This document shows, piece by piece, positions 1,680-50,929 of a stretch of 64,000 nucleotides of DNA. Every line of letters begins with the position of its first letter. The first letter of the stretch is position 1. Location of the stretch: contig OZ237777.1 in NCBI GenBank assembly GCA_965178125.1, positions 1 through 64,000 on the forward strand, read 5' to 3'. The translations under genes were made by a program, and so were the position numbers. Under the pieces are notes generated by a model that was not told the origin of the DNA, searched no databases, and saw nothing but the letters and a program-made list of their open reading frames with translations. This DNA is from Bilabrum cf. latius. Lineage: Eukaryota.

Positions 1680-1689
1680 CCCCAAACCC

Positions 1690-6178: not shown

Positions 6179-6215
6179 AATACGCCATACTTGCACTGAA
6201 TGAAGTACAATGAAT

Positions 6216-9289: not shown

Positions 9290-9337
9290 CCCAAACCCTA
9301 AAAAAAACCCAAACCAAACCTAAAAAAAAAAAACCTA

Positions 9338-9945: not shown

Positions 9946-10557
9946 TTGGGGCCGCTGAGCCCGTCAACCAGCTCTTCTACAGCTCGCCCCTCCCTGGCTC
10001 ACGCGGGCAGGGCAGAGGCAGAGCAGACAGCAGCCGAGGCGAACGACCGCGCTAAAGAGGCCGAGTCGAGGAGGCGGGCCATCCAGGGCCAGGTGAAGGC
10101 GCTAGAGGCCAAGCTGGCAGCCACTGAGGAGGCACTGCAGCAAGCACGGGACTAGGTATAGGCGGCAGAAGAGGCCGCTGAATAGGCTCTGGCCGCGATG
10201 GACACAGGCATGCGTAGCATCACGCAGGCGAGGACGACGGGCACCACTGCCAGTGGTGGCACGGGCAAGTGCGAGGACCGGGCGCGGCTGCGCGACGGCA
10301 CCGACGAGGCGGAGGGGGGCGCGGCGGCCGCCGTGGTGGGCGCCGGGGGTGGAATCGGCGCAGCTGCCGCGCTGCAGGACGCTGCGAATGGCGGTGACGT
10401 CGTGGCTGATCCGGTGCGCGAGAAAGTTCCCATTCCCGAGGCGTGGATCGATGCCGAGAGGGGAGGACACGGAGGACGCGCCTTAGGCGGCCAGAGGGCC
10501 GGCGGCTGTGATGGCCAGCAGGCAGTCGTAGGCGTTCGACGCAAACGGATGCAATAA
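9946..10557 (+). CDS. 3' part of a coiled-coil protein, open if TAG is read as Gln; 5' exon structure unresolved
   Basis: Track ORFs 9946-10155 and 10198-10557 are in the same frame. The gap reads LAATEEALQQARD*V*AAEEAAE*ALAAMD with TAGs at 10153, 10159 and 10183. The next stop is TAA at 10555-10557. Confidence 0.65.
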
Positions 10558-11528
10558 GCTCACCTTGCTATCAGACCCATCGGTTGGCATCATACCACCC
10601 TGCCGGCTCGGGGCGGGATCGACGGCCACACGGCAGCCCCCGCTTAGTCACAGGCCACCCGTGCCATTCAGGCTGAATGGGCAGTAGCTGCACTTGAGTG
10701 ACTCTTTAAATTGGATTCAAACTGATTCGAGAATACCCACATTGTATAACCCTACATTATTACAAGATTGCAGACAGGCGTGCATACATGTCCTTGAACC
10801 CCGTGTGTTTGAAGCTCGTAAGCGATGCAGGACTGTCCCTGCGGCCGCTGTGTGGTACACCATTTGCATGCTGGTTCCGTCCACGTGCCCAGGTAGCCGT
10901 TCTGAGAGTATTGGACACGTATGTCAACTACGCCCAGATTGCGCTGATTTGCACTTGCACGGTTTTTATCTTCTTCTTCCAAGATATTCCAGCCAACGGC
11001 ACGTACAGCATTAGGGCACTTTCATGGACCTAGATGGCCCCTACAAGGAGGATAGTCGGTACTGCTATCATTCATACATGGCATGGGATCATGTGGCGCA
11101 GTCGCACCTCTTGAGTCGCCAATGGAAGGCTGACAGTGGCCCCACCTTTGGAACTCGGCGGAATCCACACAGATCAAGCCTAACGATGACCCTCTAGTTG
11201 CAGACAAACCAACCCTGGATCAAACATATCATTCATGAATCAAATGCCCACTAAACGCGGGCTGGCGATCCAGACGGCACTCCAAGTCAGAGCGCCATGC
11301 GGGACTTAGCTGCAATTCCATTAAAACACATACAATGCAGTCCACACGCCCTATGGAATGCAGCGATACTCGACACAAGTAGTCCCATTACACAAACAGC
11401 ACACACTCCAGCGGCGGGAGCGTATTTTTGTGTGGGGCCCAATGCTCAACCAGCTCGAGCCTTCCCACGCACCGCTGCGCAAGCTCGCCGCACTCCGCTC
11501 AGCCACGCCAGAATGCATCCAACTACCC

Positions 11529-12032
11529 TCACCAGCCCTCTCCCCCTGCCCGTGTGCCCGACTTCATAAACCGCGACATCCTCCTCCTCCTGCTGCTCCT
11601 CGCCTCCCCCCGCATACCCATCACGCCCAAGGATCCGCACCCCACACCAGGCAGCCACAAGCCGCCCTTGGGTCCTGCTGGGGACAGACACACCCGCACG
11701 TCCCTTCCTCGTTCCACCACAAATACCTGCCCCGTGATCGACGCGCGCGGCCCTGAACCACCACGCCCTGCACCCGCTAGATTCAGCTCTGCCAGCGCCT
11801 TCGGTCCATCGAGAGCTAGTAGCCTGGCAAGTGATAAGGACTAGACACCAACAGGCGGTACTGGATTCAACGCTAAAGACGATTCACAGCCACCAGAGGT
11901 CAAGGAGAGCGGCGCACAGGCCGAGCAGGCGCAGGGCGGCGCGGGCGGAACCCCCCTGGAAGCACGGCAACTGTCACGCGCCCCCCACCGCAGTCTCCTC
12001 GCCCACTGCCACACTGGCTCCGTTGAAAACAC
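11529..12032 (-). CDS. Possible exon fragment with a leucine-rich-repeat-like segment (TAG readthrough)
   Basis: Track ORFs 11841-12032 and 11529-11720 join through one TAG: LALNPVPPVGV*SLSLARLLALDGPKALAELNLAG. The LRR resemblance is by eye only. Confidence 0.25.
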
Positions 12033-13482
12033 ATACTAGACTACCTACGACCTACACATACCTAGACACATACTTCACACACCGCATGCGGCTGATTACA
12101 GCATTCGGGCCTGCCATTTGCACACAATCCGATTGAAGCGCACCTGGTCTCGCGTTGATTTCAAGTGCGCACCCCTGCAAACCCCCATCAATTCCAACCA
12201 CTGGGCCCCGCCATGACGTATGATAGTTGCACATGACATGATACACCAATACAGCACGACATACAGACCAACGGGGCATTCACAGACGAACACACACCCA
12301 TTTGCACATCCCCTCTTTGCGAACACAACTTGTAAACTCGTCCCAGTCTACCATGATCCCATCTATGGGCAGTCACAACAACCACAGCAAAAAAATTACA
12401 ACATTGTCGAACCTACCAATCGACCGTGCGAGCGCGCCGGCGCCCAAGAGAAAACACACACCTTAGCCATCGAACCTGGGCTCAGTTTAAGTGTTGCTCA
12501 GGGCACGTGATCCGTAAACCTGCAAACTTGTAAACCTTTCAAATTATCGTAAGTGTCTGCCAATCGGGCAAAATAAGAATCTATATATGTTCAATAATAC
12601 ATTGCATCTGCTAAATAAGTTAGAGTATCCTTGGGCTTCGCGAAATCGAAGCTGCAAAGTCTCTGTCGCTCCACTCCGACGAACACATTCTGCGTATTCA
12701 CTCTCATTTCTCACTACTTCGCTGCGAATCGCTTCGCAATATGCCTGATAGCTATAACAAAATATACTAAACCGAGGCGTAAGGTCAGTGCATCTTTAGT
12801 GGCCACGTTCAAAGCGATTTGCATTCACTGTGAAATAGGAAGTTGCTAGGCATTGCCTGTTTCCAGCGTGGGGAACACCAACACGTCGGACCATTGCGGG
12901 TTTACATCGTATTCTAGTGCATTGGTGCGTTCAAACACACTTGGGTGGGCTGAAACGAGGGTATTCAAAGGACTTGAAAGCTTGCAAACCTGGACTAGGG
13001 CCTTGAAGCGCCCGCAAATTCATGGCTTGCTGCATATGGCTGCAGCATGTGTGTTTATGGACGTTATTACTCCTTTGTGGCTTCAGTTGTAGTGTAAAAT
13101 CATATGAATCCCTGTGGAATCGCGATTGTCAATGGTTTGGCCGACGCGTGGGCGCCGCGGCGCAAGTGCAAGTGCTGGCGGAACCTTGGGGACGGCATCG
13201 CTCGATACCGTTGTGGCCCGAGAGGTGACTATGCCATCAATTGATATGCGCCATTCGTACTAATTATAATACATGATTATGGATAGGCAGTGCAGGAGAC
13301 AGATAAGGTTCATGCAATACTTCCATTCGACTATCATCATGATGCGAGACCTCTCCAGGCTTACCAGGGCTTGTTGTCAATGCAAACCCCGCAGCGGTTA
13401 TAAATGTGGAACAAATTTGCAATATTTATATGTAAGGGTAAGCACGCACTAGATTGAGACGTGGGCGACACCAAGACGCACC

Positions 13483-14040
13483 ATGGAGGTATCCAGCCGT
13501 GTGCTGCTCCAAGTCTGCGATGTGAACAGGAAGGGCGAAAGATTGTTTCGTCGCAGTAGGCCATCAAAACGCCAGAGATAGCTGAAGTAGCGCTGTGCCG
13601 TCGAGGCATTCCCAGCATGTGCGGCTGAGGCAAGCCTGAGAGGCATATCCACTAGCAAGCTGCAGCAGAGCAGCTTGGAGGCGCAGGACGTTGCAGGCCG
13701 GGCCAGCGATGTATGTATTAGTCAAGCACTGCTCCGCACGCGGCACCGCACTGGCCGATCCGCACGTTCGGGCCGAGCTGGAGCATGCCGGTGCTGTGCC
13801 TCTGCATCCATCGAGAGGGCTTGGCCCTCCTCCCGCGGGTGGCGTGCGCCTCCCTCCCTGAAACCGAAAGGAAAGGAAAGGAAAGGAAAGGGGGCAGTAC
13901 GCCCTGCCGGCTGGAGTCGACCAGGAAGACATGTGGCAACGAGGCCAGTCGCATACTGGAAAAGGTGGGCCGCTGCTGAACCAGTCGATCGGGGGCGAGC
14001 CCAGTGGGTCCGCGGGACCAACGCGTGCACCTGCACCTGA
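13483..14040 (+). CDS. Hypothetical protein or first exon (TAG readthrough)
   Basis: MEVSSRVLLQVCDVNRKGERLFRRSRPSKRQR*LK*RCAVEAF... runs in frame into track ORF 13675-14040. Possible splice donor GTATGT at 13711. Confidence 0.3.
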
Positions 14041-14972
14041 CCGGGGTGTAGCTGCCCCACCACCCCTGCCCACAGATGTGTTCGTACCAGTGTTGAGCTG
14101 CCTGGACATGACGGTTCAGGGGAATCTTCAGGGTTAAGAGTGGCGAAAATCCTTTTGGCCGGTGGGTCTCCAGTGGCAGCGGACACGGGCCAGGCCACCT
14201 GCTCCTGACCTGCCTTCCACGAGGCCAGGGTGGGCCCCAGCACGGGGGCATGCCCCGCGGATCAAGTAAGGAGCTGAATCGCCTCCTTGGCCCAGCAGCA
14301 GCAGCAGACGCAAGAGCAGGCGCAGGAGCAGGAGGACAGCATCATGGTGCAGCTGCGTTGGGTGGCGTGCCTACTAGTGGTAGTGCATCCGCTGCCTGGC
14401 ATGGCACTGGCCCTCGTTAGGCAAAAAGCTTGCCCACCCACCAAACGATAGTGTTGATTTATAAACACCATCGGACGGAATCGTGCATCCGTCCACTAAC
14501 CAGATTTGCATGCACCGTGACACTGCAAGTGGCCACACCATGAGATCGCCGCTATAAAACGACTCCGAGTCGGAGCTTCGACAAAGCACATTTTGACCCG
14601 TGTCAGTCTGCAATTAAGCGTCGCATCAAGTCTCTTGCTCGTATTCAGTAAGCATAGTATTGTATCACGCAGATGACCGGTTTGGCGGTTTTACTCACAC
14701 ATACACTATGCATTGCCCGGGCATCACAGATTGAGATGTGTATCTGGATTCCCATTGTGATCTGATATGCGCCTGCTTACAGCCATGCATCAATGATCCA
14801 AATTACGTTTACGCTGCAGATCTCTTCTGGGATCACGAGAGGAATCAACGAGCGCATCAACGAGCGCACAAACGGACTGCGAGCGAGCGTAGCGATGCAA
14901 CGACTCTACATTAAAATGGACCAAATTGGGTAAATATATTCTCTCCAGTCTACCAGCTGCAAGTATTGAGAT

Positions 14973-16229
14973 ATGTCAGACGATCTGGCAGACGGTCCAT
15001 GCCGAAGAAGAGGGTCAACCTCCGGGATATAGCGAAGCAACGGGCCTGCGTCAACTGCAACAAGACGAAGAAGGCGCCTTTCTGGGATTGTTGACGACTA
15101 TGATCCTGCTGCAGCCACGTGGGATGACGTGATCCACCTATCAACGCATGTGATTGCATTTCTTGCTATTGCGGCTGACCAAGAGAATTCCACGCACCCG
15201 AACGAAATTGGTCATGTCGCGAGACGGTTGCGCGAGGCCAGGCGAGCAGTGGAAAATCTCAGTTCATCGATTGAGGCAAGTTTAAACGATTCGGTCGGCA
15301 GTTCTGATGCCGAAATGAGCTTGAACATCGCCCCAAAAAGCGCAGGCCTAGGCCGCGATTCCCTCGATGCAGTCGGCGCATCACAGACACGCGACCCCTC
15401 AGCGCTGGCAGTGGCAGACGATGGCAGCCGCAGCAACAGCGGCGAGCTGCCAGTGGGATCCACCGGAGCAAGTGTTGGCATGGCTTCTGATGGCCCACCT
15501 CCCTCCTCGACCTCGACCAGCGGGCTCCCCGTGCACTCGGGCAGCGCACGATAGCTGGCACTGTCCTCGACCTCGACCAGCGGGCTCCCCGTGCACTCGG
15601 GCAGCGCACGATAGCTGGCACTGTCCTCGACCTCGACCAGCGGGCTCCCCGTGCACTCGGGCAGCGCACGATAGCTGGCACTGTCCTCGACCTCGACCAG
15701 CGGGCTCCCCGTGCACTCGGGCAGCGCACGATAGCTGGCACTGTCCTCGACCTCGACCAGCGGGCTCCCCGTGCACTCGGGCAGCGCACGATAGCTGACA
15801 CCGTCCTCAACCTCGTCCGCCTCGCCGTCCGACGCCGGACCAGGGCCATTGCCAGGGCCAGCGGTTGCCATTGGATCCAGGGGACGGGGTGTGGGCATAC
15901 GTGATGGCAGCCGGACTCATATGGCTGCGTCTGTGGCCGGTGCTGTAGGATCGGGGTGGGGTGTGGGCATGAGTGACGGCAGCGGGAGTCACCTGTCGCA
16001 CATGAGCGACGTGGAGCTGTCCCCAAGTATGCGGGTCTACGGCAGCGGGGGACAGGAGATGGATTGGGACGGTATCGCCATCTCAGGGTCCCCTCGCATG
16101 GGATCCTCGGAGTATAGTGCACCAAGTCAGCCGTGGGCCACGAGGGATGCCCTTGGCCATGAGCATGACAGAGGACAGTGGCATGGTGACGAGTTGTGGC
16201 AAGAATCGGACGGCCCCGATCATCTGTGA
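14973..16229 (+). CDS. Hypothetical 418-aa Ser/Gly-rich protein with five 20-aa repeats (TAG readthrough)
   Basis: From ATG 14973 (MSDDLADGPC...) to TGA 16227-16229 in one frame. The only interruptions are TAGs at 15030, 15552, 15612, 15672, 15732 and 15792. It joins track ORFs 15129-15554 and 15849-16229. Confidence 0.65.
15504..15797 (+). repeat. 60-bp tandem repeat x5, in frame (SSTSTSGLPVHSGSAR*LAL)
   Basis: Near-identical consecutive 60-nt units at 15504-15797. Confidence 0.97.
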
Positions 16230-16299
16230 CTATGGTTGATACACATAATATCACAATAGATCCATGTAAGTGCATTGTCCATCTATGTGTCACGTCCGC

Positions 16300-16645
16300 G
16301 GCTGTTATATGTACTCGGACATCAGGATTGAAGCGACGGGGAGCAGAGGTGAGACGGAAGACGAGGTGGGCGCAGGAGGTCAGGAGGTGGAGAAGAAGAG
16401 GGGGACACCGGCACAGGCGACGACAGTGCGGTGTCAACAGGGAGAACACAACGGGAGGAGTGGGGGCTCCAGGTGCAAGGCACGAGGGAGACGCGGGTGG
16501 CAGCGGGCTGCAGGGCCAGCAGCACGCAGAGGGCCAACAGGTGGGTGGACAGATGGGGCGCACGGCAGGTCGGCCAGGACCGGCGCGTGCAAGCTGACAG
16601 GATAGGGCCAAGGTGACAATGCAGGGAGCAGAACACACGGTCCCT
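16300..16645 (+). repeat. Dispersed repeat module, also at ~51030-51245 (+), ~53300-53640 (-), ~55210-55550 (-), ~62340-62630 (+) and partially at 46120-46200 (-)
   Basis: Shared sequence such as caccggcacaggcgacgacagtgcggtgtcaacag and caacaggtgggtggacagatgg. Confidence 0.9.
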
Positions 16646-19598
16646 GGGCGGGGAGCAGCCACGCCCGATGCAGCTGTCAACATCGCTCATGGTTGGCGGG
16701 CAGACGGTGTGGGCAGCCGTCGCCGGTCAGCGAGCTGCCGCCATCTGATCTCGACCGCGGGAGTGGCAGCGCAGAGACATTGCATGGCCATTTCAAGCGC
16801 CTTCCGGCCGCCCGCAACCAGCACGACGGCCCGTGGCCCATGTGTTGCAATGGTGTGTTCGTTTGATTTCGATGTTGGCCAACTTTTCGGACACTCGTCA
16901 CATCATTCCCTCCTGCGAACCCTCAGAGAAGGTTCGGTATGCCACCGGTGCAGTGGCATCCAGCAGCCATTGCAGGTTTTGTGTGCTGTATTGGTGCCAG
17001 GCATCTGCCAGCACGTGCTGCATCAGGAATGATCGGCGATGGAATGCCGCTAGCGCAGCTGCTGCAAGCCTGATTCTGAATACTAATACTCATTGCTTGC
17101 ACTTTTCATTGTCTTCGGTACTAGTCTACTTGAGGGTCGAAGGGATGGAAACGCGCTAATGCTCGCACTAAATAAATGAAAAGGTCGCATGATTTCAAGT
17201 GTGGTCCCGTGGTCGCATTGATGGCCTCCTAGGAATGGCAGCTTATTCGAGCATACAGTAGGGGAAACTCACAGCATGCTGCATATTTATAATGTGCATA
17301 TTCGAATACATAGTATAGATGCGCATGCGTGGTAGCACGTAGTTCGTTCAATCAGGCTATCGCTCCTCCAAGCGGGCAACACAATAGCTTGCTTCATGAG
17401 ACGGTTCGCTAGTATAAAAATTGTGGCAGGCTTCCATCTTGCAAGATAATCTTGCTCATGCTCTACTTATTACAAAACGCCGCACGTATTTAATTTTATC
17501 TGACACATTCCCTGGGTTGAGCCGATTCGAGACTTGCTGCCGCTCTGGGCACTCTCCGCCGTGAAGCATGCTAAGCCTCACGCTGCTCTTCCAACGCACT
17601 GATTGGTTCATCATTTATTCATTGACTACAAACCTTTTCATATTCGCGCCTATCGTAGCGCTGAGGAGCCATTGCTCCGACATGTCACGCCGCTGCTCCA
17701 TCTCCACAGCATCCACCGTCGGGCACTGCCGCTGCCCTCCCGCGCCCGGACCACCTGTGATTTTTTACGGACCATATGAGAGGGCGAGACGGGGCATGGC
17801 TTGCCCATTCACGATCTGCTGCATGGCCTACCAATTGACGACTGGCCTACCAGTGGATCCAGCTGCGCACGCACCACATGCCCTGCATCGCAGCAGATGG
17901 GACCCAGCTAACACTTACAGGTCCTGGCCAACCTGACCCGCGTCTCATCCATCCAGAGAGTCAATCACATGATAATCGACTGTGCTACTTGGGTCTTTTC
18001 CTCTTGATTCCTGACCCGAACCAGCCAGAGCCTTTACCCATGGTTCCGGACCTGGATCTGAAGTCTACGGAATCCGCCAGCGCTTCGCGGTGCATCGCTG
18101 CACATGCTCGTACTAGCGCCCACTGCAATCTCAGGCAAAATGGGCAGCAGCGCCACTTTCCGGACACGCTGTGTGCGCGTCCATAGGCGATGCGGGGCGG
18201 ACCACGACGGCAGGTTCGGAGCAATCCGATGCACGGCCTGCGCAAACTAGCTTTGATTGCATCCTTTCGCCCGTCGGACTTTTATCTTTGCCCCTTGCCG
18301 AATCTTACAATTCCCTACTCGAGATACTATTGATGATTGGCAGCAGCCTGGGCCTGCCTTGCCGCTATGTGGCGAAGTGCCGGTTGCAGGCTTCACCTCT
18401 ACTACACTACAGTCTCTGCTACGGCTTGGAGTGATTCGAGCGCAAATCTTCGTCAGCGTAGGAAATAATGCTGGGGCTGAAATCTATGGCATTTGCGAGC
18501 CAGTAGCTGCCGTTGTATGTTGGTTCGGCGTGTATCCGGGCGAGCCTGGGTGACGATGCTGCCAAGCTGTCTCCAACCTCTTGGTTCTAACGAGTACGGC
18601 GAGCTCCTGCGCTATGAAGATATCCGAAACTAATATCGGGGCTCATTGGTTCGCGCGGTCGAAGCGATGGCTCGATGGCTCGCACCAAATTTGGTGTGTT
18701 GGTCGACACAAGGATGCGCTGCCAATCATTACTTTCCGTTGCTAGGTTATGTTGTTGATCGCCAAACTCTTACAGATTTCTATCGTTCAAAGTGGCGCTG
18801 TGTTGAAATCGTGTGTCTCGCGCCAACAAGGCATCGAGGCATGCAAACGCCGTTGCTGCTTGTAGTGAAGTTCCACCCAGCACGCGGCGCCAAGCCTTGT
18901 TCGAGATCGCCTATCGTGGAAGCAAACGATTCACCGATCACAGCTGAAACCATGCTATTTCAATGATCCGAGGTACGCTCACACTCGATGTTCATAGAGG
19001 ATGGGATGTGAAACACAAATGTGAACACTCACAGTTCCGGTCATCGGCGCTGCTATGCCGGCGCACCCGCAGAGACAGCGACCAAGCAGGCCGAAGCCCC
19101 AGAGGCCACCTCGACCAGTTAGGCAAAGAGGAAACAGTCCAAAAGCATATACGTGCCCCCATCCACCTGCGAGCGGAGCGGCACAAGGTACGTAGACCTC
19201 ACTCCCTCCCCCTGGCAGCGCAAGAAGCAGCTGCAGGCCGCAGGACCGGAACCCTCTACCCCGGTGTGGAGTACATCCCTACGCTCGATCCCATTCATCG
19301 GCGGCATGTGTGGCTCCTGGTCCGGCTGCGCTTCCGCCGACCGGTCCCCTCCTGCTCCTCGAGTGAGGGACACACGTCCTGCCCGTGGCGGCCACTGCCA
19401 CCGGCCCCCCATGACTGGCTGACCCGAAGATGCACCACCGTACCGCGTAACTTAGATGTGCCCCCTCCTACCCCGCTGGTAGGCTCTAACCCCAACGGCT
19501 AGTCCGGACTGCTGGGCAGACAGGTGCATGTGCAGCGGGCCAGGAGCCACCTCGGATGCACCACCGTTCGATGCGACCGCCCACATGAAACCTCTCGG

Positions 19599-20757
19599 CT
19601 GCAGGTCGGGGCAAGTGCCTCAGGGCTGCAGGTCGGGGCAAGTGCCTCAGGGCTGCAGGTCGGGGCAAGTGCCTCAGGGCTGCAGGTCGGGGCAAGTGCC
19701 TCAGGACTGCAGGTCGTTGCTGTGCCTCAGGGCTGCAGGTCGGGGCAAGTGCCTCAGGGCTGCAGGTCGTTGCTGTGCCTCAGGGCTGCAGGTCGGGGCA
19801 AGTGCCTCAGGGCTGCAGGTCGGGGCAAGTGCCTCAGGGCTGCAGGTCGGGGCAAGTGCCTCAGGGCTGCAGGTCGGGGCAAGTGCCTCAGGACTGCAGG
19901 TCGTTGCTGTGCCTCAGGACTGCAGGTCGTTGCTGTGCCTCAGGACTGCAGGTCGGGGCAAGTGCCTCAGGGCTGCAGGTCGGGGCAAGTGCCTCAGGGC
20001 TGCAGGTCGGGGCAAGTGCCTCAGGGCTGCAGGTCGGGGCAAGTGCCTCAGGACTGCAGGTCGTTGCTGTGCTTCAGGGCTGCAGGTCGGGGCAAGTGCC
20101 TCAGGACTGCAGGTCGTTGCTGTGCCTCAGGACTGCAGGTCGGGGCAAGTGCCTCAGGGCTGCAGGTCGGGGCAAGTGCCTCAGGACTGCCGGTCGGGGC
20201 AAGTGCCTCAGGGCTGCAGGTCGGGGCAAGTGCCTCAGGACTGCAGGTCGTTGCTGTGCCTCAGGGCTGCAGGTCGGGGCAAGTGCCTCAGGGCTGCAGG
20301 TCGGGGCAAGTGCCTCAGGGCTGCAGGTCGTTGCTGTGCCTCAGGGCTGCAGGTCGGGGCAAGTGCCTCAGGGCTGCAGGTCGGGGCAAGTGCCTCAGGG
20401 CTGCAGGTCGTTGCTGTGCCTCAGGGCTGCAGGTCGGGGCAAGTGCCTCAGGGCTGCAGGTCGGGGCAAGTGCCTCAGGGCTGCAGGTCGGGGCAAGTGC
20501 CGCAGGGCTGCAGGTCGGGGCAAGTGCCTCAGGGCTGCAGGTCGGGGCAAGTGCCTCAGGGCTGCAGGGTGGAGGCAAGTGCCTCAGGACTGCAGGTCGT
20601 TGCTGTGCCTCAGGGCTGCAGGTCGGGGCAAGTGCCTCAGGGCTGCAGGTCGGGGCAAGTGCCTCAGGGCTGCAGGTCGGGGCAAGTGCCTCAGGGCTGC
20701 AGGTCGTTGCTGTGCCTCAGGGCTGCAGGTCGGGGCAAGTGCCTCAGGGCTGCAGGG
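19599..20757. repeat. Two-variant minisatellite: 27-bp CTGCAGGTCGGGGCAAGTGCCTCAGGG interspersed with 26-bp CTGCAGGTCGTTGCTGTGCCTCAGGG
   Basis: Read directly; about 43 units. Confidence 0.95.
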
Positions 20758-20762
20758 TGGAG

Positions 20763-21010
20763 GCAGCCGGCCCCCGATTTCGACACGTCCGTCCTACAAG
20801 ACGCCATGGACGAGTGCGAGGGCGAGGATCAGGTGAGGGATCAGTGGAAGCGGGTCGTGGCCACCAGCCAGCTCGCGCTGGCCAGGAGGCTCTGCAGTGC
20901 GGCTGCTGGCGAGTGGCTGGACCGGGCGGACGAGCGCCTGCCCAGCGACCCCGGTCGTCGATGCGGCCCAAGTTGGCAGGTAGCCCTGCGCGATCGAGCG
21001 GAACCTGGAG
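20763..21010 (+). mobile_element. Possible degenerate fragment of a non-LTR retrotransposon ORF (post-RT region, CRE/R2-like)
   Basis: DQWKRVVATSQLALARRLCSAAAGEWLDR..LPSDPGRRCGPSWQVALRDR resembles the 'ARLxSxxxxxAGAWLxxxP...FxxALRxRLG' segment of RLE-type LINEs. By-eye match only; no RT core seen. Confidence 0.3.
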
Positions 21011-39600: not shown

Positions 39601-42254
39601 TCGGAGTCCGCGCAGCACCTACCGATGGGCATCGTTGCCGACGCTCGGAGTCCGTGCAGCACCTACCGATGGGCATCGTTAGCACGAGCGATGGGCTTCG
39701 ATGTCAACGCTCGGAGTCCGCGCAGCACCTACCGATGGGCATCGTTAGCACGAGCGATGGGCATCGTTGTCGACGCTCGGAGTCCGTGCAGCACCTACCG
39801 ATGGGCATCGTTAGCACGACCGATGGGCATCGTTGCCGACGTTCGGAGTCCGTGCAGCACCTACCGATGGGCATCGTTAGCACGAGCGATGGGCATCGTT
39901 GTCGACGCTCGGAGTCCGCGCAGCACCTACCGATGGGCATCGTTAGCACGAGCGATGGGCATCGATGTCAACGCTCGGACCGCCGCGCAGCACCTACCGA
40001 TGGGCATCGATGTCGACGTTCGGAGTCCGTGCAGCACCTACCGATGGGCATCGTTAGCACGAGCGATGGGCATCGTTGTCGACGCTCGGAGTCCGCGCAG
40101 CACCTACCGATGGGCATCGTTAGCACGAGCGATGGGCATCGTTGTCGACGCTCGGAGTCCGTGCAGCACCTACCGATGGGCATCGTTAGCACGAGCGATG
40201 GGCATCGTTGTCGACGCTCGGAGTCCGCGCAGCACCTACCGATGGGCATCGTTAGCACGACCGATGGGCATCGTTGCCGACGTTCGGAGTCCGTGCAGCA
40301 CCTACCGATGGGCATCGTTAGCACGAGCGATGGGCATCGTTGTCGACGCTCGGAGTCCGCGCAGCACCTACCGATGGGCATCGTTAGCACGAGCGATGGG
40401 CATCGATGTCAACGCTCGGACCGCCGCGCAGCACCTACCGATGGGCATCGATGTCGACGTTCGGAGTCCGTGCAGCACCTACCGATGGGCATCGTTAGCA
40501 CGAGCGATGGGCATCGTTGTCGACGCTCGGAGTCCGCGCAGCACCTACCGATGGGCATCGTTAGCACGAGCGATGGGCATCGTTGTCGACGCTCGGAGTC
40601 CGTGCAGCACCTACCGATGGGCATCGTTAGCACGAGCGATGGGCATCGTTGTCGACGCTCGGAGTCCGCGCAGCACCTACCGATGGGCATCGTTAGCACC
40701 TACCGATGGGCATCGTCGCCGACGCTCGGAGTCCGTGCAGCACCTACCGATGGGCATCGTTGCCGACGCTCGGAGTCCGTGCAGCACCTACCGATGGGCA
40801 TCGTTAGCACGAGCGATGGGCATCGATGTCAACGCTCGGAGTCCGCGCAGCACCTACCGATGGGCATCGATGTCGACGTTCGGAGTCCGTGCAGCACCTA
40901 CCGATGGGCATCGTTAGCACGAGCGATGGGCATCGTTGTCGACGCTCGGAGTCCGCGCAGCACCTACCGATGGGCATCGTTAGCACCTACCGATGGGCAT
41001 CGTTGCCGACGCTCGGAGTCCGCGCAGCACCTACCGATGGGCATCGTTAGCACCTACCGATGGGCATCGTCGCCGACGCTCGGAGTCCGCGCAGCACCTA
41101 CCGATGGGCATCGTTGCCGACGCTCGGAGTCCGTGCAGCACCTACCGATGGGCATCGTTAGCACGAGCGATGGGCATCGATGTCAACGCTCGGAGTCCGC
41201 GCAGCACCTACCGATGGGCATCGATGTCGACGTTCGGAGTCCGTGCAGCACGTACCGATGGGCATCGTTGTCGACGCTCGGAGTCCGCGCAGCACGTACC
41301 GATGGGCATCGTTGTCGACGCTCGGAGTCCGCGCAGCACCTACCGATGGGCATTGTTAGCATCTACCGATTGGCATCGATGCCGACGCTCGGAGTCCGCG
41401 CAGCACCTACCGATGGGCATCGTTGTCGACGCTCGGAGTCCGTGCAGCACCTACCGATGGGCATCGTTGCCGACGCTCGGAGTCCGCGCAGCACCTACCG
41501 ATGGGCATCGTTAGCACGAGCGATGGGCATCGTTGTCGACGCTCGGAGTCCGTGCAGCACCTACCGATGGGCATCGTTAGCACCTACTGATGGGCATCGA
41601 TGTCAACGCTCGGAGTCCGTGCAGCACCTACCGATGGGCATCGTTGCCGACGCTCGGAGTCCGCGCAGCACCTACCGATGGGCATCGTTGCCGACGCTCG
41701 GAGTCCGCGCAGCACCTACCGATGGGCATTGTTAGCACCTACCGATTGGCATCGATGCCGACGCTCGGAGTCCGCGCAGCACCTACCGATGGGCATTGTT
41801 GCTGACGCTCGGAGTCCGTGCAGCACCTACCGATGGGCATCGTTAGCACGTACCGATGGGCATCGTTGTCGACGCTCGGAGTCCGCACAGCACCTACGGA
41901 TGGGCATCGTTGCCGACGCTCGGAGTCCGCGCAGCACCTACGGATGGGCATCGTTGCCGACGCTCGGAGTCCGCGCAGCACCTACCGATGGGCATCGTTG
42001 TCGACGCTCGGAGTCCGCGCAGCACCTACCGATGGGCATCGTTGCCGACGCTCGGAATCCGTGCAGCACCTACCGATGGGCATCGTTGCCGACGCTCGGA
42101 GTCCGCGCAGCACGTACCGATGGGCATCGTTGTCGACGCTCGGAGTCCGCGCAGCACGTACCGATGGGCATCGTTGCCGACGCTCGGAGTCCGCGCAGCA
42201 CCTACCGATGGGCATTGTTAGCACCTACCAATTGGCATCGATGCCGACGCTCGG
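21689..42254. repeat. 20.5-kb satellite, 44-bp unit GACGCTCGGAGTCCGCGCAGCACCTACCGATGGGCATCGTTGCC with 22/23-bp derived sub-units
   Basis: Continuous array. The sub-units agcacgagcgatg(a/g)gcat(g/c)gtt and agcacctaccgatgggcatcgtt appear from 25998 onward. Confidence 0.98.
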
Positions 42255-43059
42255 GATGCCCCGAGCGCGGTTAACCAGACGCGTGGCGGGGACGACGAAG
42301 GGGCACGGACAGGCCCGTGCAAGCCAGTAGGGCTCGGGAGCGTGGAGGCCCATGGGGAGGGAGGGGCAGCGGAGGCAGCCGAGTGGGGCCAGACCACAAG
42401 GCAGCAGGATTTCTGGCGAAGGCTGAGACGTACGGGTGCGTAGGGAGACAGCAGATCAGAAAGCGTACAGGCAACGAGCCCGCGGTGTCTGCACACAAGT
42501 AGCACACAAGGCCTTCACACAACGTGACACTCTACCAGTATCAACTATGTTTAAGTGGCTCTGTATCTATTTAAGGATGGAATAGGGCCATTTGTGGTGT
42601 TTGATGGGTGAACCATAATTTAGCATTGATATTATACAAGTCTGAAGGTTTAACACTGTACGATCTAGGATTGTGAAAGCCAGAATTGAAGTTTCCAAAT
42701 AGGTGTATCAAGACTTGCGTACGGACCTTTAATTGCGCAAACTAACTAAATTATTAATAGATTATTCATTATATGTGCCTAAATTTGTCATTTTGACAAA
42801 AATTAGCCCCTCGGATATGAATCTAGGAATCTGGGCTAGGGCCCGGCATGGGCCGGCACACGCGAACCTCGGCGATGGTCCTACCAAATGTGCTACTGAT
42901 CCGAGACGTCAGCCTTGATATTGCCCGGTGTGTACCGCGTAATGCACACCGGCACGTCGGTTCAGTCGCTGAGAAAGTCAGCCACCCTCACGTCCACCTC
43001 GAGCCCGCTGGCCTGTCCAGTGCGGGCACCTGGTTCTCAAGGCTCTCACCGCTTCCCGT

Positions 43060-43650
43060 GCTAAAAAGCATTCCCAATTCGCCCTGCACCTAGGTGTGCC
43101 TGTTGCCGTGAGCCACGGCCTTCTTCCACAGAGTACCCGTGGTACTCACCCATGTCGCGCCTCAGGTAGATGGCTGCCCTGCCTCCGTCGGGGATGGTGG
43201 ACTTGGGCCGTGCATGTCCAGCTCTTCCACCCCGCAGATCTCTGCAAGCTTGCACTACTGCCTATCCCGCACGTAGCCCCAGTCCAGATAGATGATACGC
43301 GACAGCGACTCGGTCATGCTTTGACATCCTCCTGTTCTCGATTGACCCCGTGAAGGCCCGGGGCATGGGATCGGCATCGCCCATCTACTTACGATTCTGG
43401 TACATGTCCTCCATCCACATCGCCGGCACTTTGCCATTGTATGTCTTCCAGAGAGCGGTTTGCAGGTCCCACAGCCAGTCGAGCTAGCTCAGCTTCACCC
43501 GTCGTGTAGGCCAACTCCTTGAGCGGGTGCATCGTCGACCACCACCGCCTCATGCAGCTGAAAGGGGCCTCCATCCTGCAGGTCCATCGGATAATAGTGA
43601 CCTGTAGCGCGGTGCCGTCAATGCCCCCCGGCCCAATATGGCATCGCCGG
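43060..43650 (-). pseudogene. Frameshifted protein-like remnant, possibly a transposase
   Basis: Protein-like segments alternate between frames (GIDGTALQVTI; PLKELAYTTGEAELARL; MTESLSRIIYLDWGYVRDR). IDGT at 43611-43622 resembles the first acidic motif of a DDE transposase. Confidence 0.2.
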
Positions 43651-43729
43651 GCCCAGGCCTGCGTTCAGCAGCCGCATCGCGCCAACGACGATGGATCCAC
43701 GAGCCGAGCTGGCCCGGTCAGCACGTTGC

Positions 43730-44848
43730 TCAGAGCTCCTGCTCTCTTGCTGGATTCCGCACTACCGTTGCTGGCCGCTGGGGCGACTGCCCGGACGGGC
43801 TCTGCGGCCCTACCGGCTTGTCTGCCAGAGACTCGGGGCTGCTGCTGCCGCTGTCGGTGCCACTGCTGGTGCTGGTGCTGGTGTCGGGCCCGGACCCTGC
43901 CTCGGCGCTGGCAGCACGTCTCGGTGATGAAGGCAGGCATTTCCGAATGCTCGCGACAAAGACATCTTCCCATTCCTCCTGCTGGTTCCCAGCAAACAGA
44001 AACTGGAAGCAATGCAACAGTGCGCGCATGTCCGGCGTCCATGCAGTGTCCTGCGAGGCCAGCTCTGGAACCAACAGCATCAACAGCCGGCTTGCGCTGC
44101 CCATCCTGCCCTCGAAAGCGACAGGGTCATCATCTATCACATCATCTGCCTTGCGATACTCCTTGAGGAGACGTACTAGTATCATGTCCGGATGACACCT
44201 TTTCAGAACCGGTAAGGCGGCATGCACCACCGCAGTAAGCCTCGTCTTCAAGCTCGGTCCCGGCGATCTGGGAGACTCGCTGCCTGCACCCCCGACCCGG
44301 GGGTACTTGGCGACTTGTTCAACAGCCTAGTCCTCATTGCTGGTCTGTTCGGAGCGACTACGTTTCTGTCCGGGTACATATTGAGTCCCATCGCTAGCAG
44401 CACCATGGACGCGGGGTTCCTGTCGTTCCAATCCCCTCGCTGGGACTCGCCGGCCATCGATATGATCGTGTGCACTCTTTTTCAGATTCGACCATTCGAA
44501 TATTCCGTACTTTCTACCGCATACTTGGCAGCTGATTGCCCTGTCTTCAATCATGCGCACTCGGCAGGCGGGCTCTTTGGCGTGGCCAAAGCAACTACGT
44601 AGTTGGGATCCTATGTGCTCCTTGTCAATCTCCATGACTAACCTATCGAGCTGACGCGACACATAGGCGTCATAGAGGGTTCTTAGGCGGCCATTCACCT
44701 TCTCGCCGGTAATCATTTCGTACTGGCGAACCGCATTCGCAGATGATTTTGGCAGTAGCCGTAGGTTTGATTTGTTCTAAACCAGCTGCTTAACCTCATT
44801 TAAAGAAGCATCTATTTGAGCGGCCGTTAGGGGCCAGACGCGAGGCAT
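43730..44848 (-). CDS. Hypothetical 372-aa protein with a C2H2/BED-like zinc-finger motif (TAG readthrough)
   Basis: From ATG 44848 (MPRVWPLTAAQIDASLNEVKQLV*NKSNL...) to TGA at 43730. TAGs at 44777-44779 and 44327-44329 join track ORFs 44327-44716 and 43730-44251. Motif CQVCGRKYGIFEWSNLKKSAHDH. Confidence 0.6.
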
Positions 44849-45094
44849 TGGGAGCTACGAAAGCTGTCCCGCCCTTGCCTGCCATTTGCCTACGGAACCT
44901 ACTAGAAGTGAATGCGCGGCGCACTCCTACTCCGGGTGAGGCCCTGCCCATCACGGAGTGGCCGACCTGGAGCTTGGCAAGTAGGCGGGGGGCAACAACA
45001 TTGACGAAACACTAGCATCCGCTTGCGCTGCGTCGGACTGCTGAATCGGGAGCCAGGGACCGTGGCGGGTGGAGACCGGACTCGGTGTTCACTG

Positions 45095-46457
45095 AACAGT
45101 ACCCATCCTTCAATCAGCAAAGTGCAAAGGTGGTGCCGCCGGCGGAGTGCGAAGCGCATCCCGGTCTGCAATGATCGGACCGCTGCTGCTCGTGCCCTGT
45201 ACGGATTCTGTGACAGGCAAGGACACCCAGGACCGCATCAGCGTACCTCACCCCCCCCCCCGCTCGTGCACCTGTACGGTAGAACCAGTTTAAAGATACA
45301 TTGATTCGGCTGAGGCAAGTGTGTCCCCGTGGCCGAGCCAAAATTTTGGCTCATTCACGAGGTTCCGCTGCGGCCGGGGACGTCAGCGGCCGATTGCCGA
45401 TTGGCCACCGTCCCACCTTATCCGCATATCCAAATTCAATTCGAAAGGTCCAAATGCCACTGCAAGACCACAACAGGCACAGAACCGCCGGTGCCAGGCC
45501 GTTCCAGTTGCCGGAGCGGTTGGTTTGAGGCGTACCTCACCACTACCCACGCCCGTGCAGAAGTCCCGTGCAGAAGTCCCGTGCACGTGCACGGGGCCCC
45601 GCCCACGTGGTCTGACGCCCTAGGGGCCGTGTGCCTTGCTCCATGCATTCCCACCTTGGCCCCATTCTCTTCCAGCTTGGACGCGCCGGAACTGGCCCCG
45701 CTTCCATCCATCCATCCATCTGCCCGTCCGCCCATCCATGCATCCGGTTGCTGGGCCTCTGCGCGCTGCTGCCCGTCGTGCACCTAAAGCACCTGTACGG
45801 CTTTCGATCCATTTGACAGGCAGGGCGAGGCCCGTGCCGGCTTGCATCAGCGTACCTCACCACCACCCACGCCCGTGCAGAAGTCCCGTGCAGAAGTCCC
45901 GTGCACGTGCACGGGGCCCCGCCCACGTGGTCTGACGCCCTAGGGGCCGTGTGCCTTGCTCCATTGAACCTAGACTACAGATCAGATTTGTTCCTTCAAC
46001 CACACCCATTGGCTCATCTTCACGGCTGCTGCAAACCCCACTGGTTGGCAGTTACCACGACTGGTTCTTCACCGGTCCACCTGAATGCGGTATTCATCTG
46101 ACACTACGAATGTACACACCACTTCCTGTCCTCCCGCCTCGTCTTCCGTCTCACCTCTGCTCCCCATTGCTTCAATCCTGATGTCCGAGTACATATAACA
46201 GCATTCCAACCTTGGCCCCATTCTCTTCCAGCTTGGACGCGCCGGAACTGGCCCCGCTTCCATCCATCCATCCATCTGCCCGTCCGCCCATCCATGCATC
46301 CGGTTGCTGGGCCTCTGCGCGCTGCTGCCCGTCGTGCACCTAAAGCACCTGTACGGCTTTCGATCCATTTGACAGGCAGGGCGAGGCCCGTGCCGGCTTG
46401 CATCAGCGTACCTCACCACCACCCACGCCCGTGCAGAAGTCCCGTGCACGTGCACGT
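45095..46457 (+). repeat. Composite dispersed repeat with an internal 320-bp-period direct repeat
   Basis: Modules shared with 52387-53245, 54310-55150, 57230-57650 and, inverted, 62630-64000. Confidence 0.9.
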
Positions 46458-47184
46458 GGCAACGCCCGTGCACCCACCTACAGGAAGACACCCGGATGCG
46501 GCGAACCCAATTTTTGGAGCGTGGCGAGCTGGGCCCGCTGGGCTGCATCTGGCATGAACAGCCTATGCACGATCGGGCAGCACTTGGCGCTATTCCCCCA
46601 CAGCCCTATCATGAGGTTCCGCATCGCCAGACAGCACAGTCACCGTGCCCGTCACAGCCTTGACAGACACGCCCGACAGAATGCGGCCAGATGCAGCCGA
46701 CACCGCCGCGCCCGAGCCCACAGTCACCACGCCAGGCACCGCGCTCGTCGACGCGCCTAGCCCTCCACGTCTGAATTCGCTGCCCGCATATCCAAACAGA
46801 ATACCAACAGCGCCATTACACGCACCGTGTATTGGATAGTCGAATTCGGCAGCCTGCTGTTCCCTTGCACTAGCGACCCACCCGGCAAGCGAGCCCAACC
46901 CTGGATCCCTTGAGCAGCGGATTCATCCCCAAGAGCCGCCCGAGCGGTGCCAGAGCTCAACAGCTGGTTCCGGGCCAGCTGCCCTTTTCAGCTTGTTTCG
47001 GGTTCTGAATACATCATTCAAATGCGACATGCTTTCTTTGGTTGTGCCGCGTAGCTGCAGAACGAGCGACGAAGGAGCCCTGGTCTCACATGCAGAGGCT
47101 GCCGCATATGCCACCAAGCTCTAGATGAACTCGTGCAAGCGCCAATGCCACAATAACATATGTCCAGCTAGTAATACCGACGTG

Positions 47185-47384
47185 NNNNNNNNNNNNNNNN
47201 NNNNNNNNNNNNNNNNNNNNNNNNNNNNNNNNNNNNNNNNNNNNNNNNNNNNNNNNNNNNNNNNNNNNNNNNNNNNNNNNNNNNNNNNNNNNNNNNNNNN
47301 NNNNNNNNNNNNNNNNNNNNNNNNNNNNNNNNNNNNNNNNNNNNNNNNNNNNNNNNNNNNNNNNNNNNNNNNNNNNNNNNNNNN
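47185..47384. other. Assembly gap (200 N)
   Basis: Run of N. Confidence 1.
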
Positions 47385-48572
47385 CAACCACACCCATTGG
47401 CTCATCTTCACGGCTGCTGCAAACCCCACTGGTTGGCAGTTACCACGACTGGTTCTTCACCGGTCCACCTGAATGCGGTATTCATCTGACACTACGAATG
47501 TACACACCACTTCCTGTCCTCCCGCCTCGTCTTCCGTCTCACCTCTGCTCCCCATTGCTTCAATCCTGATGTCCGAGTACATATAACAGCATTCCAACCT
47601 TGGCCCCATTCTCTTCCAGCTTGGACGCGCCGGAACTGGCCCCGCTTCCATCCATCCATCCATCTGCCCGTCCGCCCATCCATGCATCCGGTTGCTGGGC
47701 CTCTGCGCGCTGCTGCCCGTCGTGCACCTAAAGCACCTGTACGGCTTTCGATCCATTTGACAGGCAGGGCGAGGCCCGTGCCGGCTTGCATCAGCGTACC
47801 TCACCACCACCCACGCCCGTGCAGAAGTCCCGTGCACGTGCACGTGGCAACGCCCGTGCACCCACCTACAGGAAGACACCCGGATGCGGCGAACCCAATT
47901 TTTGGAGCGTGGCGAGCTGGGCCCGCTGGGCTGCATCTGGCATGAACAGCCTATGCACGATCGGGCAGCACTTGGCGCTATTCCCCCACAGCCCTATCAT
48001 GAGGTTCCGCATCGCCAGACAGCACAGTCACCGTGCCCGTCACAGCCTTGACAGACACGCCCGACAGAATGCGGCCAGATGCAGCCGACACCGCCGCGCC
48101 CGAGCCCACAGTCACCACGCCAGGCACCGCGCTCGTCGACGCGCCTAGCCCTCCACGTCTGAATTCGCTGCCCGCATATCCAAACAGAATACCAACAGCG
48201 CCATTACACGCACCGTGTATTGGATAGTCGAATTCGGCAGCCTGCTGTTCCCTTGCACTAGCGACCCACCCGGCAAGCGAGCCCAACCCTGGATCCCTTG
48301 AGCAGCGGATTCATCCCCAAGAGCCGCCCGAGCGGTGCCAGAGCTCAACAGCTGGTTCCGGGCCAGCTGCCCTTTTCAGCTTGTTTCGGGTTCTGAATAC
48401 ATCATTCAAATGCGACATGCTTTCTTTGGTTGTGCCGCGTAGCTGCAGAACGAGCGACGAAGGAGCCCTGGTCTCACATGCAGAGGCTGCCGCATATGCC
48501 ACCAAGCTCTAGATGAACTCGTGCAAGCGCCAATGCCACAATAACATATGTCCAGCTAGTAATACCGACGTG
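47385..48572 (+). repeat. 1188-bp copy of 45997-47184 flanking the gap (probable false duplication)
   Basis: Apparently identical sequence at offset 1388. One copy ends and the other starts exactly at the gap. Confidence 0.9.
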
Positions 48573-48835
48573 CAGGGCACAAAGGCATGCAGAGATAGGC
48601 CTCTTGCCCTCACGTTCGATAGTGCAGCGGCCGCCAGAGACACTGCGCATCGAGCAGCCTCCATCTTGTTTAGCTGCAGCTGCGCGACTTCATCCTTCTT
48701 CAGCTTATCCTAGCTTTGCTATGTCCCTGAATCCAGTTTTTGAGGCTGGCTGGTTGAACCCAGGCAAGGTTGAAGGTTCAAGGAAGGTTCCACTGGCACT
48801 GCGGCGCCGCTGGCTCCGCAGTTAGTTCCGTAATA
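48311..48835 (-). CDS. Hypothetical protein frame (TAG readthrough), start uncertain
   Basis: Frame bounded by two TGAs with three TAGs (48719, 48710, 48509): QPQKLDSGT*QS*DKLKKDEVAQLQLNKMEAARC...HEFI*SLVAYAAA. First in-frame ATG at 48664. Confidence 0.35.
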
Positions 48836-48915
48836 TCAAACGGGCTCCCATCTAACAGATTAGCTGGAACTGGGCAGAATATTGTCCACCGCCATACGCT
48901 GCAATCACATCCTCT

Positions 48916-50929
48916 ATGGACGAATCTGCAGTGACTAGTGGCGACTAGGTGCTTCAACAAGCAATAAGCCAGCTGAGAATGTATGCGGAGCAAGATTCAA
49001 ATATTTTCTTGCCTGACAAACCGAGATAGCTTGTGGTAAGATCGTTCAAGTTGTAGTGCTTGCTGGCTTGATTGCGCACTACGAACTTACGAACGAATCG
49101 TTATTTCCGTCCCCACACAGGTTGATTTCGTTGAGAATATGTATAGCATTTCTTTCGAGGATAAACATTTCTGGGACAAGCCGAAATAGGAAACCAAGCT
49201 TGCTATGGCTTTGAACCGTGAATTAAGCAAAGATAACAGTTTGAGTTTTGGTGAGATCCCGCCAATTGCGGCAGTAAGTTTTCTGGAGAGTTTTGGCAGT
49301 TGGTCCAAGAATGACTGTCTGGCAGACCTTGGCTGTGGTAGCGGCCGATTTCTAATCTTAGCCTGTGCAATTCTGGGCATTCGCGGGGTAGGTATGGAAC
49401 TCATCCCAGCTCGTGCAAGGGCCGGGGCCAATGCTATTCAGCTGTGTCGCCGCCTGACAGAAGAGCAATTCTGTTAGGTAGCCCAAGGCGCTGCCCATCT
49501 AGACACACTTTTCCCTTTAGAGATGGGTGAGGCCCCCGATTTGGCTGCTGCCAGCAGTGCATCTTCTAGTTCTAGCAGTAGCTACACCGTGGTGACCTCG
49601 AGCGCCAGTTCTTCTTCATCTGGTGTTCGAACTGCAGCCGACACGGTCAAACGTGTGTACGGGTTGAGTGATTCGGACATCACGCAGGCATTGTAGGCAA
49701 TCCAATCACTTAATTCGCGTTGCAAGATTTATGGGCAGTCATTCGCTGTGGACGTGAGGCAAGGCCCACTCGAAATTTTGAAAGACCGCCAGGCGATAAG
49801 AGACAGATTGAACAATGCTACAGTGGCGTATTGCTGTAATTATGTGTTTAATGAAAACCTGAATTCGAGAATGCTTGAGGCAGTACGTTCTCTTCCAGAT
49901 TTGCGGCAGTTGATGACGCTAAAATTGATCGGAGATTGCCGGCCATTTTTTATCATGGGAAAGTAGACAAGGGTTGACAATACGTGGTCCAGCTACCAAG
50001 CTCCTGTGTTTCATTACTACCGAGTGCGACGAGCACCGCTCCTTGTAACTAGTTTCGAGCAGCCCTCTGGAGTGGCAACCAGGTCTAAATCCCGCAGTTC
50101 AGTCCACAGCGCCTCTAGTGGTACCGGTGAGGCAGGCTAGATTGATTTGGGCTCAGCCAAGCTCGGCCAAAAGCGAAGCTGGGGTGAACTGCAAGATGGG
50201 GTCTTTGATGATGGGAGTACTGGCCGTACATCAACCCGGACTGGCGAAGCCGGCCGCGCCGCCCATGCTTCTCGGCTCGCCCACGCGAAAATGATCAAAG
50301 AGGCGCGTAGGGCTATATTTCGCGAGCGGATTGAGGCAGACAGGAAGCCAAAGAGACTAAGAGCCGAAGTTTCGCCGGTGTCACGCCGCCTGACCAGATC
50401 TCAAGGCCAGATTGGCAATCTAGAGTTTGCGAAGTTGGATGCATCGGGTAAAAACGCTATCATGTGGGTGGGGAACAAGGAGGAGCCAGATCCCAAGAAG
50501 GAACGTGTCCATACCGCTCAACAGAAGCGCCGACAGGGTGCAACCCTCATTGCAGCGGTACCGCAAGACTCAGATGTCAAGATGAACGCACGGAGGCAGC
50601 ACGCGCAAGTGCTCGGCGCCTGGGCCGCACAAGCCATGCAGCAGGTTCCGCAACACCCTGCAGAGTTCAGCGACAAGGCAAAATAGCGCGCAGTCTACTT
50701 GTCCAGAGCAGTGTTGGCGCTATTCATGGGAACCAGCGATTAGAAAAGCGAGGCAGCGCTTGCGATTAGCTCTTCCTGCCTCACTCGATAGTGCACTGCA
50801 GTATCGGGCTTCTCCCAAAACGCCCCAAGACATGTCCGCAAAGCCTCATTGTACCTATTGGATGATTACAAGCTGCGATCCATTCACGTGTTGCGTTGCA
50901 TTGAGCGACTGAGGGCATGGTGGGGGTGA
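48916..50929 (+). CDS. DOT1: DOT1-like histone H3K79 methyltransferase, 642 aa; join(48916..49035,49121..50929), TAG read as sense
   Basis: DOT1 motifs in the expected order: SFGE (YGE), LADLGCGSG (SAM motif I), GVGMELIP, ATVAYCCNYVF (VIFVNNFAF), QLMTLK, VDNTWSSYQAPVFHYY (VSWT..YY). One frame with 10 TAGs and no TAA or TGA until TGA 50927-50929. Confidence 0.8.
49036..49120 (+). other. Predicted 85-nt spliceosomal intron in the DOT1-like gene
   Basis: GTAAGA donor and pyrimidine-rich ttccgtccccacacAG acceptor. Removing it joins two protein-like frames in phase 0. Confidence 0.7.

Follow-up and report, generated by a model that had tools for sequence, protein, structure and literature searches.

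We analyzed a 64-kb stretch of DNA from Bilabrum cf. latius (contig OZ237777.1, positions 1 to 64,000; hereafter the window), which contains a DOT1-like gene carrying ten in-frame TAG codons. The window has a guanine + cytosine (GC) content of 52-65% and a single run of 200 N at 47185-47384. It is a eukaryotic, repeat-rich chromosome-end region, and satellite DNA makes up more than half of it. On the basis of five gene-like frames, an initial annotation made from the sequence alone had proposed that UAG is read as an amino acid, probably Gln, in this genome and that UAA is apparently still a stop. Its counts are correct: the five frames, the fifth once an intron is removed, contain 24 in-frame TAG codons (3 + 6 + 2 + 3 + 10) but neither TAA nor TGA internally, and four frames end in TGA and one in TAA. 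As evidence for the code, the frames differ in value. The DOT1-like frame (48916-50929+) has homology, a predicted fold, and a splice joint to support it, and the support for 43730-44848- is moderate, whereas the other three frames are, by their length, no better than chance. The proposal that UAG is a sense codon is well supported by that one gene, described below and listed with the other features in Table 1.

The DOT1-like gene consists of two exons separated by a short spliceosomal intron. Read straight, 48916-50929+ is not open, containing 19 TGA, 12 TAG, and 7 TAA codons, and its initial description as an open frame therefore holds only for the two exons with the 85-nt intron removed. 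The closest in-frame stop upstream of the ATG is a TAA at 48853. The spliced coding sequence has 642 sense codons, in which TAG occurs ten times (two in exon 1 and eight in exon 2) and TAA is absent, while TGA appears only as the terminal codon; the numbers expected from position-specific base composition are 9.9 for TAG, 7.5 for TAA, and 6.1 for TGA. The two off-frames of exon 2 contain 7 and 7 TAA, 6 and 9 TAG, and 16 and 18 TGA, giving 23 and 25 for TAA and TGA together. From these off-frames, 24.5 excluded stops (TAA + TGA) would be expected in exon 2 and none was seen (P about e^-24.5). Because TAG is as frequent in frame as off frame while TAA and TGA are excluded, TAG acts like a sense codon and TAA and TGA act like stops. 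This pattern extends over both parts of the protein. In the DOT1-like methyltransferase domain (approximately residues 30-300), which contains four TAG codons, 16 excluded stops were expected and none was seen (P = 1.1e-7); in the remainder, a non-conserved tail with four further TAG codons, 8 were expected and again none was seen (P = 3.4e-4). Since the tail still excludes TAA and TGA, translation seems to continue past the first post-domain TAG.

The product is a predicted DOT1-family S-adenosylmethionine (SAM)-dependent methyltransferase, as judged by Pfam, phmmer, alignment, and modeled fold. The Pfam family DOT1 (PF08123) matched with an E value of 5.9e-5 and 23.2 bits, marginally above the cut-off of 23, as the one match among nine open reading frames (ORFs) translated with TAG as sense. 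A phmmer search against 1.84 billion representative sequences gave 34 hits at E <= 1e-3, and PF08123 scored above its cut-off in all ten of the hits sampled and was the best family in nine of them. BLASTP aligned query residues 33-271 with P0008 (E = 1e-11). Two of the phmmer hits, P0001 (179 aa) and P0002 (90 aa), are the same sequence as this gene and come from a 7,540-nt ENA contig; this is an independent assembly, in which the fragments called with the standard code end at TAGs. In an alignment of the DOT1-like protein with seven DOT1-domain proteins (8 sequences), the TAGs at exon-2 residues 119, 192, and 282 are spanned by homology, with invariant columns before them (G44, E45, D69, L70, G71, G73, G75, and E93) and after (T234 and W289), and all four TAGs at residues 23, 119, 192, and 282 lie N-terminal of the invariant W289. 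The SAM-binding motif DLGCGSG (D69, L70, G71, G73, and G75) is invariant both in these 8 sequences and in a second set of 16. The columns at the TAGs themselves are variable, with D/A/E/K/S/T at residue 119 and V/E/S/E/T/R/K at residue 282, and TAG 192 sits within an insert.

An AlphaFold2 model built from the 16-row alignment (mean predicted local distance difference test score, 71.2; predicted template modeling score, 0.69) has a seven-stranded methyltransferase fold, with low confidence limited to a Ser-rich insert at residues 127-165 and to the ends. TAG 282 falls within the predicted strand 277-285. When the model was compared with the PDB by Foldseek, the best ten matches were all DOT1 or DOT1L (E = 9e-8 to 3.5e-7, TM-score normalized to the target up to 0.64), comprising human, Trypanosoma brucei DOT1A, and bacterial DOT1L structures, and yeast Dot1p (1u2z) ranked 26th with an E value of 1.4e-6. 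Searching the PDB by sequence gave weak matches, the best being an RNA methyltransferase (E = 0.0014), with DOT1 chains at 0.018 and 0.026. The protein thus resembles the DOT1/DOT1L H3K79 methyltransferases (PF08123; PDB 1nw3, 1u2z, 8fjm, and 9ne1) in its DLGCGSG motif, seven-stranded fold, and best structural matches. It differs from them in its low sequence identity (8-15%), in the Ser-rich insert of about 40 residues, and in a 300-residue tail that has no homologues. A word-index search of 5.8 billion proteins in the "near" length range found nothing for exon 2, and none of the 47 pattern matches to the DOT1-like protein in a scan of JGI metagenomes was confirmed.

Public sequencing runs provided further evidence on the gene structure. 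Eight runs contain words of 48800-51000; four of them, belonging to one sample of one study, contain all of these words, and the others contain fractions of 0.40, 0.17, 0.11, and 0.10. We compared contigs of runs X1, X5, X6, and X8, listed as their longest pieces, with 47990-51300. A 229-nt contig of X5 (depth 2.3) matches 48881-49034 with no differences and then joins 49120, skipping 85 nt with GT..AG ends, a gap that coincides exactly with the predicted intron. Among the contigs listed, none from X5 lay on the intron. Listed contigs with no differences cover seven of the ten TAGs in X5 and nine of the ten across X5, X6, and X8; TAG 49475 had no cover among them. If X5 were a DNA run, the joined form would represent an intron-less copy, which would still show splicing but not the survival of the TAGs in RNA.

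The same comparison gave two side observations. Contigs of X8 match 49096-49143 and 49927-50153 with no differences, but 103 and 22 unrelated letters, respectively, precede the matches. The break at 49096 lies within the intron and off the splice site, and these breaks could mean that the sample contains a rearranged copy or that a read is chimeric. In addition, 48094-48760 is covered at a depth of 82 in X5 and 17 in X6, versus 2-5 on the DOT1-like gene. The X5 and X6 contigs end at 48760 and 48759, whereas an X1 contig continues; this segment may be a separate transcript with stronger expression, for which 48003-48740+ and 48311-48835- are candidate frames.

We then considered what long frames mean in a window of this composition. 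Outside the satellites, frames of at least 200 codons in 9750-19596 and 42220-64000 number 3 and 9, respectively, with the standard code, 11 and 20 with TAG as sense, 17 and 41 with TGA as sense, and 3 and 18 with TAA as sense. Because reading TGA as sense opens more long frames than reading TAG as sense, frame length alone proves nothing. A preferable measure is the number of still-forbidden stops expected in a frame from its own off-frames. By this measure, the maximum was 8.0 in any TGA-sense frame and 9.5 in any TAA-sense frame, compared with 24.5 for the DOT1-like gene. A clear excess over chance is confined to 48916-50929+, with a moderate excess for 43733-44950-; judged by length, 9946-10557+, 14973-16229+, and 48311-48835- do no better than chance.

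Table 1. Coordinates of the features in the 64-kb window.
Feature	Position	Strand	Description
DOT1-like gene, exon 1	48916-49035	+	ATG at 48916; 40 codons; in-frame TAG at 48946 and 49027
DOT1-like gene, spliceosomal intron	49036-49120	+	85 nt, GTAAGA...CACAG; retention would bring an in-frame TGA
DOT1-like gene, exon 2	49121-50929	+	602 sense codons, then TGA at 50927
In-frame TAG codons of exon 2	49187, 49475, 49694, 49964, 50138, 50684, 50741, 50789	+	
Orphan frame, second candidate gene	43730-44848	-	372 codons; 2 TAG; ends in TGA; open up to 44950 with 4 TAG
Candidate coiled-coil-like frame, unvalidated	9946-10557	+	3 TAG; ends in TAA
Candidate frame, unvalidated	14973-16229	+	6 TAG, including 5 within a 60-bp tandem repeat (15504-15815); ends in TGA
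Candidate frame, weakest of the five	48311-48835	-	3 TAG; ends in TGA
Telomere repeats, CCCTAA-type (printed ACCCTA)	1133-1682; 8083-9301		92 copies; 203 copies
155-mer arrays	205-1071; 6212-8022		each precedes a telomere-repeat array
22-mer array	1690-6177		204 copies; between the two telomere-repeat/155-mer modules
54-mer array	9338-9662		after the second telomere-repeat array
27-mer array	19597-20756		43 copies; just before the 20-kb satellite
Satellite, about 20.5 kb, 44-nt units	21689-42219		higher-order periods of 66, 110, 154, and 198 nt

Among the other four frames, 43730-44848- is moderately supported as a coding frame. In its extended form (43733-44950-) about 11 TAA and TGA codons were expected and none was seen, and its GC contents at the three codon positions are 0.61/0.49/0.61. 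Pfam gave no match for it, and the word-index search described above found no homologue. For 9919-10554+ about 4 excluded stops were expected, and all of its Pfam matches were below the cut-off. For 14970-16226+ the expectation was about 10; this frame has no Pfam match, and its residues 1-180 have no homologue in the word-index search. The tandem repeat noted for its TAGs in the initial annotation was found as described. On the opposite strand, 15262-16686- runs for 475 codons without any stop, and its Arg/Pro/Cys-rich translation is unlike a protein. The frame 48311-48835- has no Pfam match. One X5 contig carries a 2-nt insertion behind position 48493 and a C>A change at 48509 inside one of its TAGs, and the X5 and X6 contigs mentioned above stop within this frame.

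We also trained a codon-usage model on the DOT1-like gene (642 codons), with stops excluded, and scored frames with it; a version that included stops was discarded, being confounded by the stop penalty. Across 78 TAG-sense intervals of at least 150 codons (mean -0.121, standard deviation 0.108), 9919-10554+ ranked 1st (0.138), 14970-16226+ 4th (0.053), and 43733-44950- 6th (0.015), and 48311-48835- was outside the top 8. With so small a training set, and with base composition as a possible cause of the ranks, this is weak support for the frames. Searches of ten standard-code ORFs and of six-frame read-through translations of 9750-14749 and 42220-45302 yielded no Pfam family; in 14750-19600, 45300-48000, and 51000-64000, Pfam was run on selected ORFs.

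The repeats at the left end of the window are arranged as two telomere-repeat/155-mer modules, and the layout of 1-9750 is either a duplicated chromosome-end module or an assembly mis-join of two ends. Across the 20-kb satellite, all three forward frames are open over kilobases. The region from 45 to 64 kb consists largely of dispersed direct and inverted repeats. Within it, 45997-47184 and 47385-48572, which flank the run of N, are identical at 1188/1188 positions and are most likely the unmerged overlap of two scaffolded contigs rather than a real duplication; an earlier reading, in which the second half of 48311-48835- lies in a true repeat, was rejected for this reason. Dispersed repeats at 47990-48211 and 50987-51300 flank a unique 3-kb stretch. 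In run X1 the summed word depth is 700-5,200 in these flanks versus 27.5 in the unique part, and many variant positions in the flanks are common to runs X1, X5, and X6. A unit of about 1.9 kb is present in two copies in 52279-56046. Each copy is open for 620-631 codons with TGA as sense and contains 4-6 TGA, with 5.5-7 TAA and TAG expected, and a 243-aa standard-code ORF with no Pfam family lies in each (53062-53793 and 54970-55701). Inverted-repeat copies at 56393-56884 (-) and 63324-63818 (+), whose arms are 99% complementary, carry a TAG-sense frame of 164-165 codons. Its two copies take second and third place among the 78 intervals scored with the codon model and share 94.5% protein identity, and this frame may be a repeated coding element. 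An exact search with a 24-nt pattern from one high-copy repeat returned no matches, and Rfam had no match in the window, which also lacks an eRF1 gene.

Taking the evidence of the DOT1-like gene together, we put the probability that TAG is read as an amino-acid codon in nuclear genes of this organism at roughly 75%. On this reading UGA is not a sense codon; TAA is not a common sense codon, and UAA is probably not a sense codon at all. UAA may have been retained as a stop, as proposed, or may simply go unused; the support for a stop is indirect, coming from the lack of TAA among 642 sense codons. The single terminal TAA ends the unvalidated frame 9946-10557+, and TGA closes the validated gene as well as three frames that are unvalidated. 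Several points weigh against reading TAG as sense. The case rests on one validated gene, which lies in a repeat-rich subtelomeric region, and decaying gene copies are common in such regions. Its Pfam score is only at the cut-off. The assignment of the runs to RNA or DNA is a guess: none is on record as RNA, and X5 is labeled "probably DNA". Depth is low (2.3-5), and the splice joint comes from one contig. ARAGORN detected no tRNA gene in the 64-kb window. In the gene, CAA (17 vs 8.1 expected) and TTG (18 vs 8.7) are both raised in frame, as deamination at CWG sites would also predict. At its 3' end, the C-terminal tail has no homologues, and TGA 50927 is therefore unconfirmed as the true end; beyond it the same frame is open for 322 more codons, to a TAA at 51896-51898.

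These points bear on different alternatives. Under the standard code, the DOT1-like copy would be a transcribed subtelomeric pseudogene whose TAGs arose by C>T changes at CAG and CTG (CHG-type methylation and deamination), which create no TAA or TGA. Unbiased decay is excluded, since the off-frame ratios of 7:8:17.5 imply a TAG share of about 25% and a probability of about 1e-6 that ten of ten stops are TAG. The biased form fits the fact that all ten stops are TAG, the location among satellites and dispersed repeats, the low cover in X5 and X6, and the raised CAA and TTG, as CAG>CAA and CTG>TTG would give. However, CAG shows no depletion (observed/expected 1.32, with 1.15-1.49 in four comparison stretches), TAG falls short of expectation throughout (0.61-0.95), the off-frames hold no more TAG (6 and 9) than the coding frame, and CTA is at its expected number (7 vs 7.1). 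The agreement between observed and expected in-frame TAG would then be a coincidence. Moreover, the gene extends over 1.9 kb without a frameshift and has retained an intron that is used, and past the first post-domain TAG its tail remains free of TAA and TGA at the P value given above. We consider such a pseudogene unlikely.

A code of the table 6 type, in which both UAA and UAG encode Gln and TAA is rare through a GC-rich genome, had been left as an alternative in the form of strong TAG bias. Codes of this type are by far the commonest nuclear stop-codon reassignment in the literature, according to the available portion of PMC5304391, and TAA is the rarest of the three trinucleotides in the window (774, versus 1591 TAG and 1310 TGA). 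The gene itself speaks against this code: it has 0 TAA and 10 TAG despite 17 CAA and 13 CAG, so that the Gln box has no preference for G-ending codons, and with an A share of 57% the probability of finding no TAA among ten TAR (R, A or G) codons is about 2e-4. In exon 2, moreover, each off-frame has seven TAA and the coding frame none. This code is very unlikely here. The decoding could instead be ambiguous or context-dependent, with UAG both sense and stop or with TGA 50927 read through to the TAA at 51896. UAG serves both functions in Condylostoma and Blastocrithidia, and the open 322 codons and the lack of a conserved C-terminus that would fix the protein end are compatible with this explanation. 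The stretch 50930-51898 crosses a repeat of high copy number and a 56-bp tandem array (51323-51697), however, in which several frames are open on both strands, and its codon-model score is unremarkable (-0.041). We read its openness as chance in GC-rich repeat DNA, with TGA read-through as the alternative. Furthermore, the gene contains one TGA where 6.1 were expected, and three TAGs in the last 81 codons do not fit a position-dependent role as stops. We consider context-dependent decoding very unlikely.

If UAG is a sense codon, the ten UAGs of the DOT1-like mRNA would be decoded to give the complete catalytic fold and the C-terminal tail, presumably by a tRNA with the anticodon CUA, and the release factor would no longer act on UAG. 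Gln at UAG is a prior only, taken by analogy: Gln is the commonest precedent for this codon, and Leu is the other known one. To our knowledge, it is very rare for one of UAA and UAG to be reassigned without the other. The code of the fornicate Iotanema spirale corresponds in meaning to NCBI table 15. In that species, UAG encodes Gln and the stops are UAA and UGA; most genes terminate in UAA (104 of 119 scored ends), and Gln was shown at conserved positions, according to the available portion of PMC5304391. The present gene resembles those of Iotanema in having in-frame UAG in an ordinary gene, with UAG as sense and UAA not, and no in-frame UAA or UGA; it differs in that the validated gene ends in TGA and the GC content is 52-65%. 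The same portion of PMC5304391 describes exLh, a sainouroid rhizarian from Lygus hesperus with 384 in-frame UAG codons in 71 genes and ends at 56 UAA and 15 UGA, in which Leu was assigned from conserved columns; the "uncultured rhizarian" of the initial annotation agrees with this lineage. There, as proposed here, UAG alone is reassigned, but unlike in exLh the columns at the TAGs of the DOT1-like gene are variable.

In phyllopharyngean ciliates, UAG encodes Leu in one lineage and Gln in two, independently of UAA (the available portion of PMC11687900), and in another ciliate UAA and UAG encode different amino acids (the available portion of PMC10553269). UAA is the predominant terminator in the lineages treated in the available portions of PMC5304391 and PMC11687900. 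The present genome resembles the phyllopharyngean ciliates in that UAG would be reassigned apart from UAA. It has TTAGGG-type telomere repeats and 20-kb satellites in this window, which are unlike ciliate macronuclear DNA. With the table 6 codes of ciliates, dasycladacean algae, and hexamitid diplomonads (UAA and UAG as Gln), it shares in-frame TAG in a nuclear gene; it differs from them in that none of the 642 sense codons is TAA, even though CAA is no rarer than CAG. No UAG-only nuclear code beyond those of Iotanema, exLh, and ciliates was found in our literature search, supplementary tables excluded. We tentatively suggest, at somewhat less than an even chance, that the window represents an undescribed, independent origin of a UAG-only code with UGA as the main terminator, in contrast to all UAG-only lineages described so far, where UAA prevails. 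The host would be a non-ciliate whose GC-rich genome has introns, TTAGGG-type telomeres, and large satellites.

Such a code would be an additional case of a known, rare kind of code change, and, if true, a further independent one in a GC-rich genome with ordinary introns. The occurrence of UAG at its full compositional frequency would then indicate that the change is old and complete. Standard-code gene callers would split this organism's genes at every TAG, as in P0001 and P0002 of the public protein collection, so that annotation and metagenomic binning would be badly fragmented; the eight runs with this stretch are already public. Lineages in which UAG and UAA are uncoupled test how the single eukaryotic release factor tells the two codons apart and how a tRNA with the anticodon CUA takes over the codon, and this organism may be one of them.

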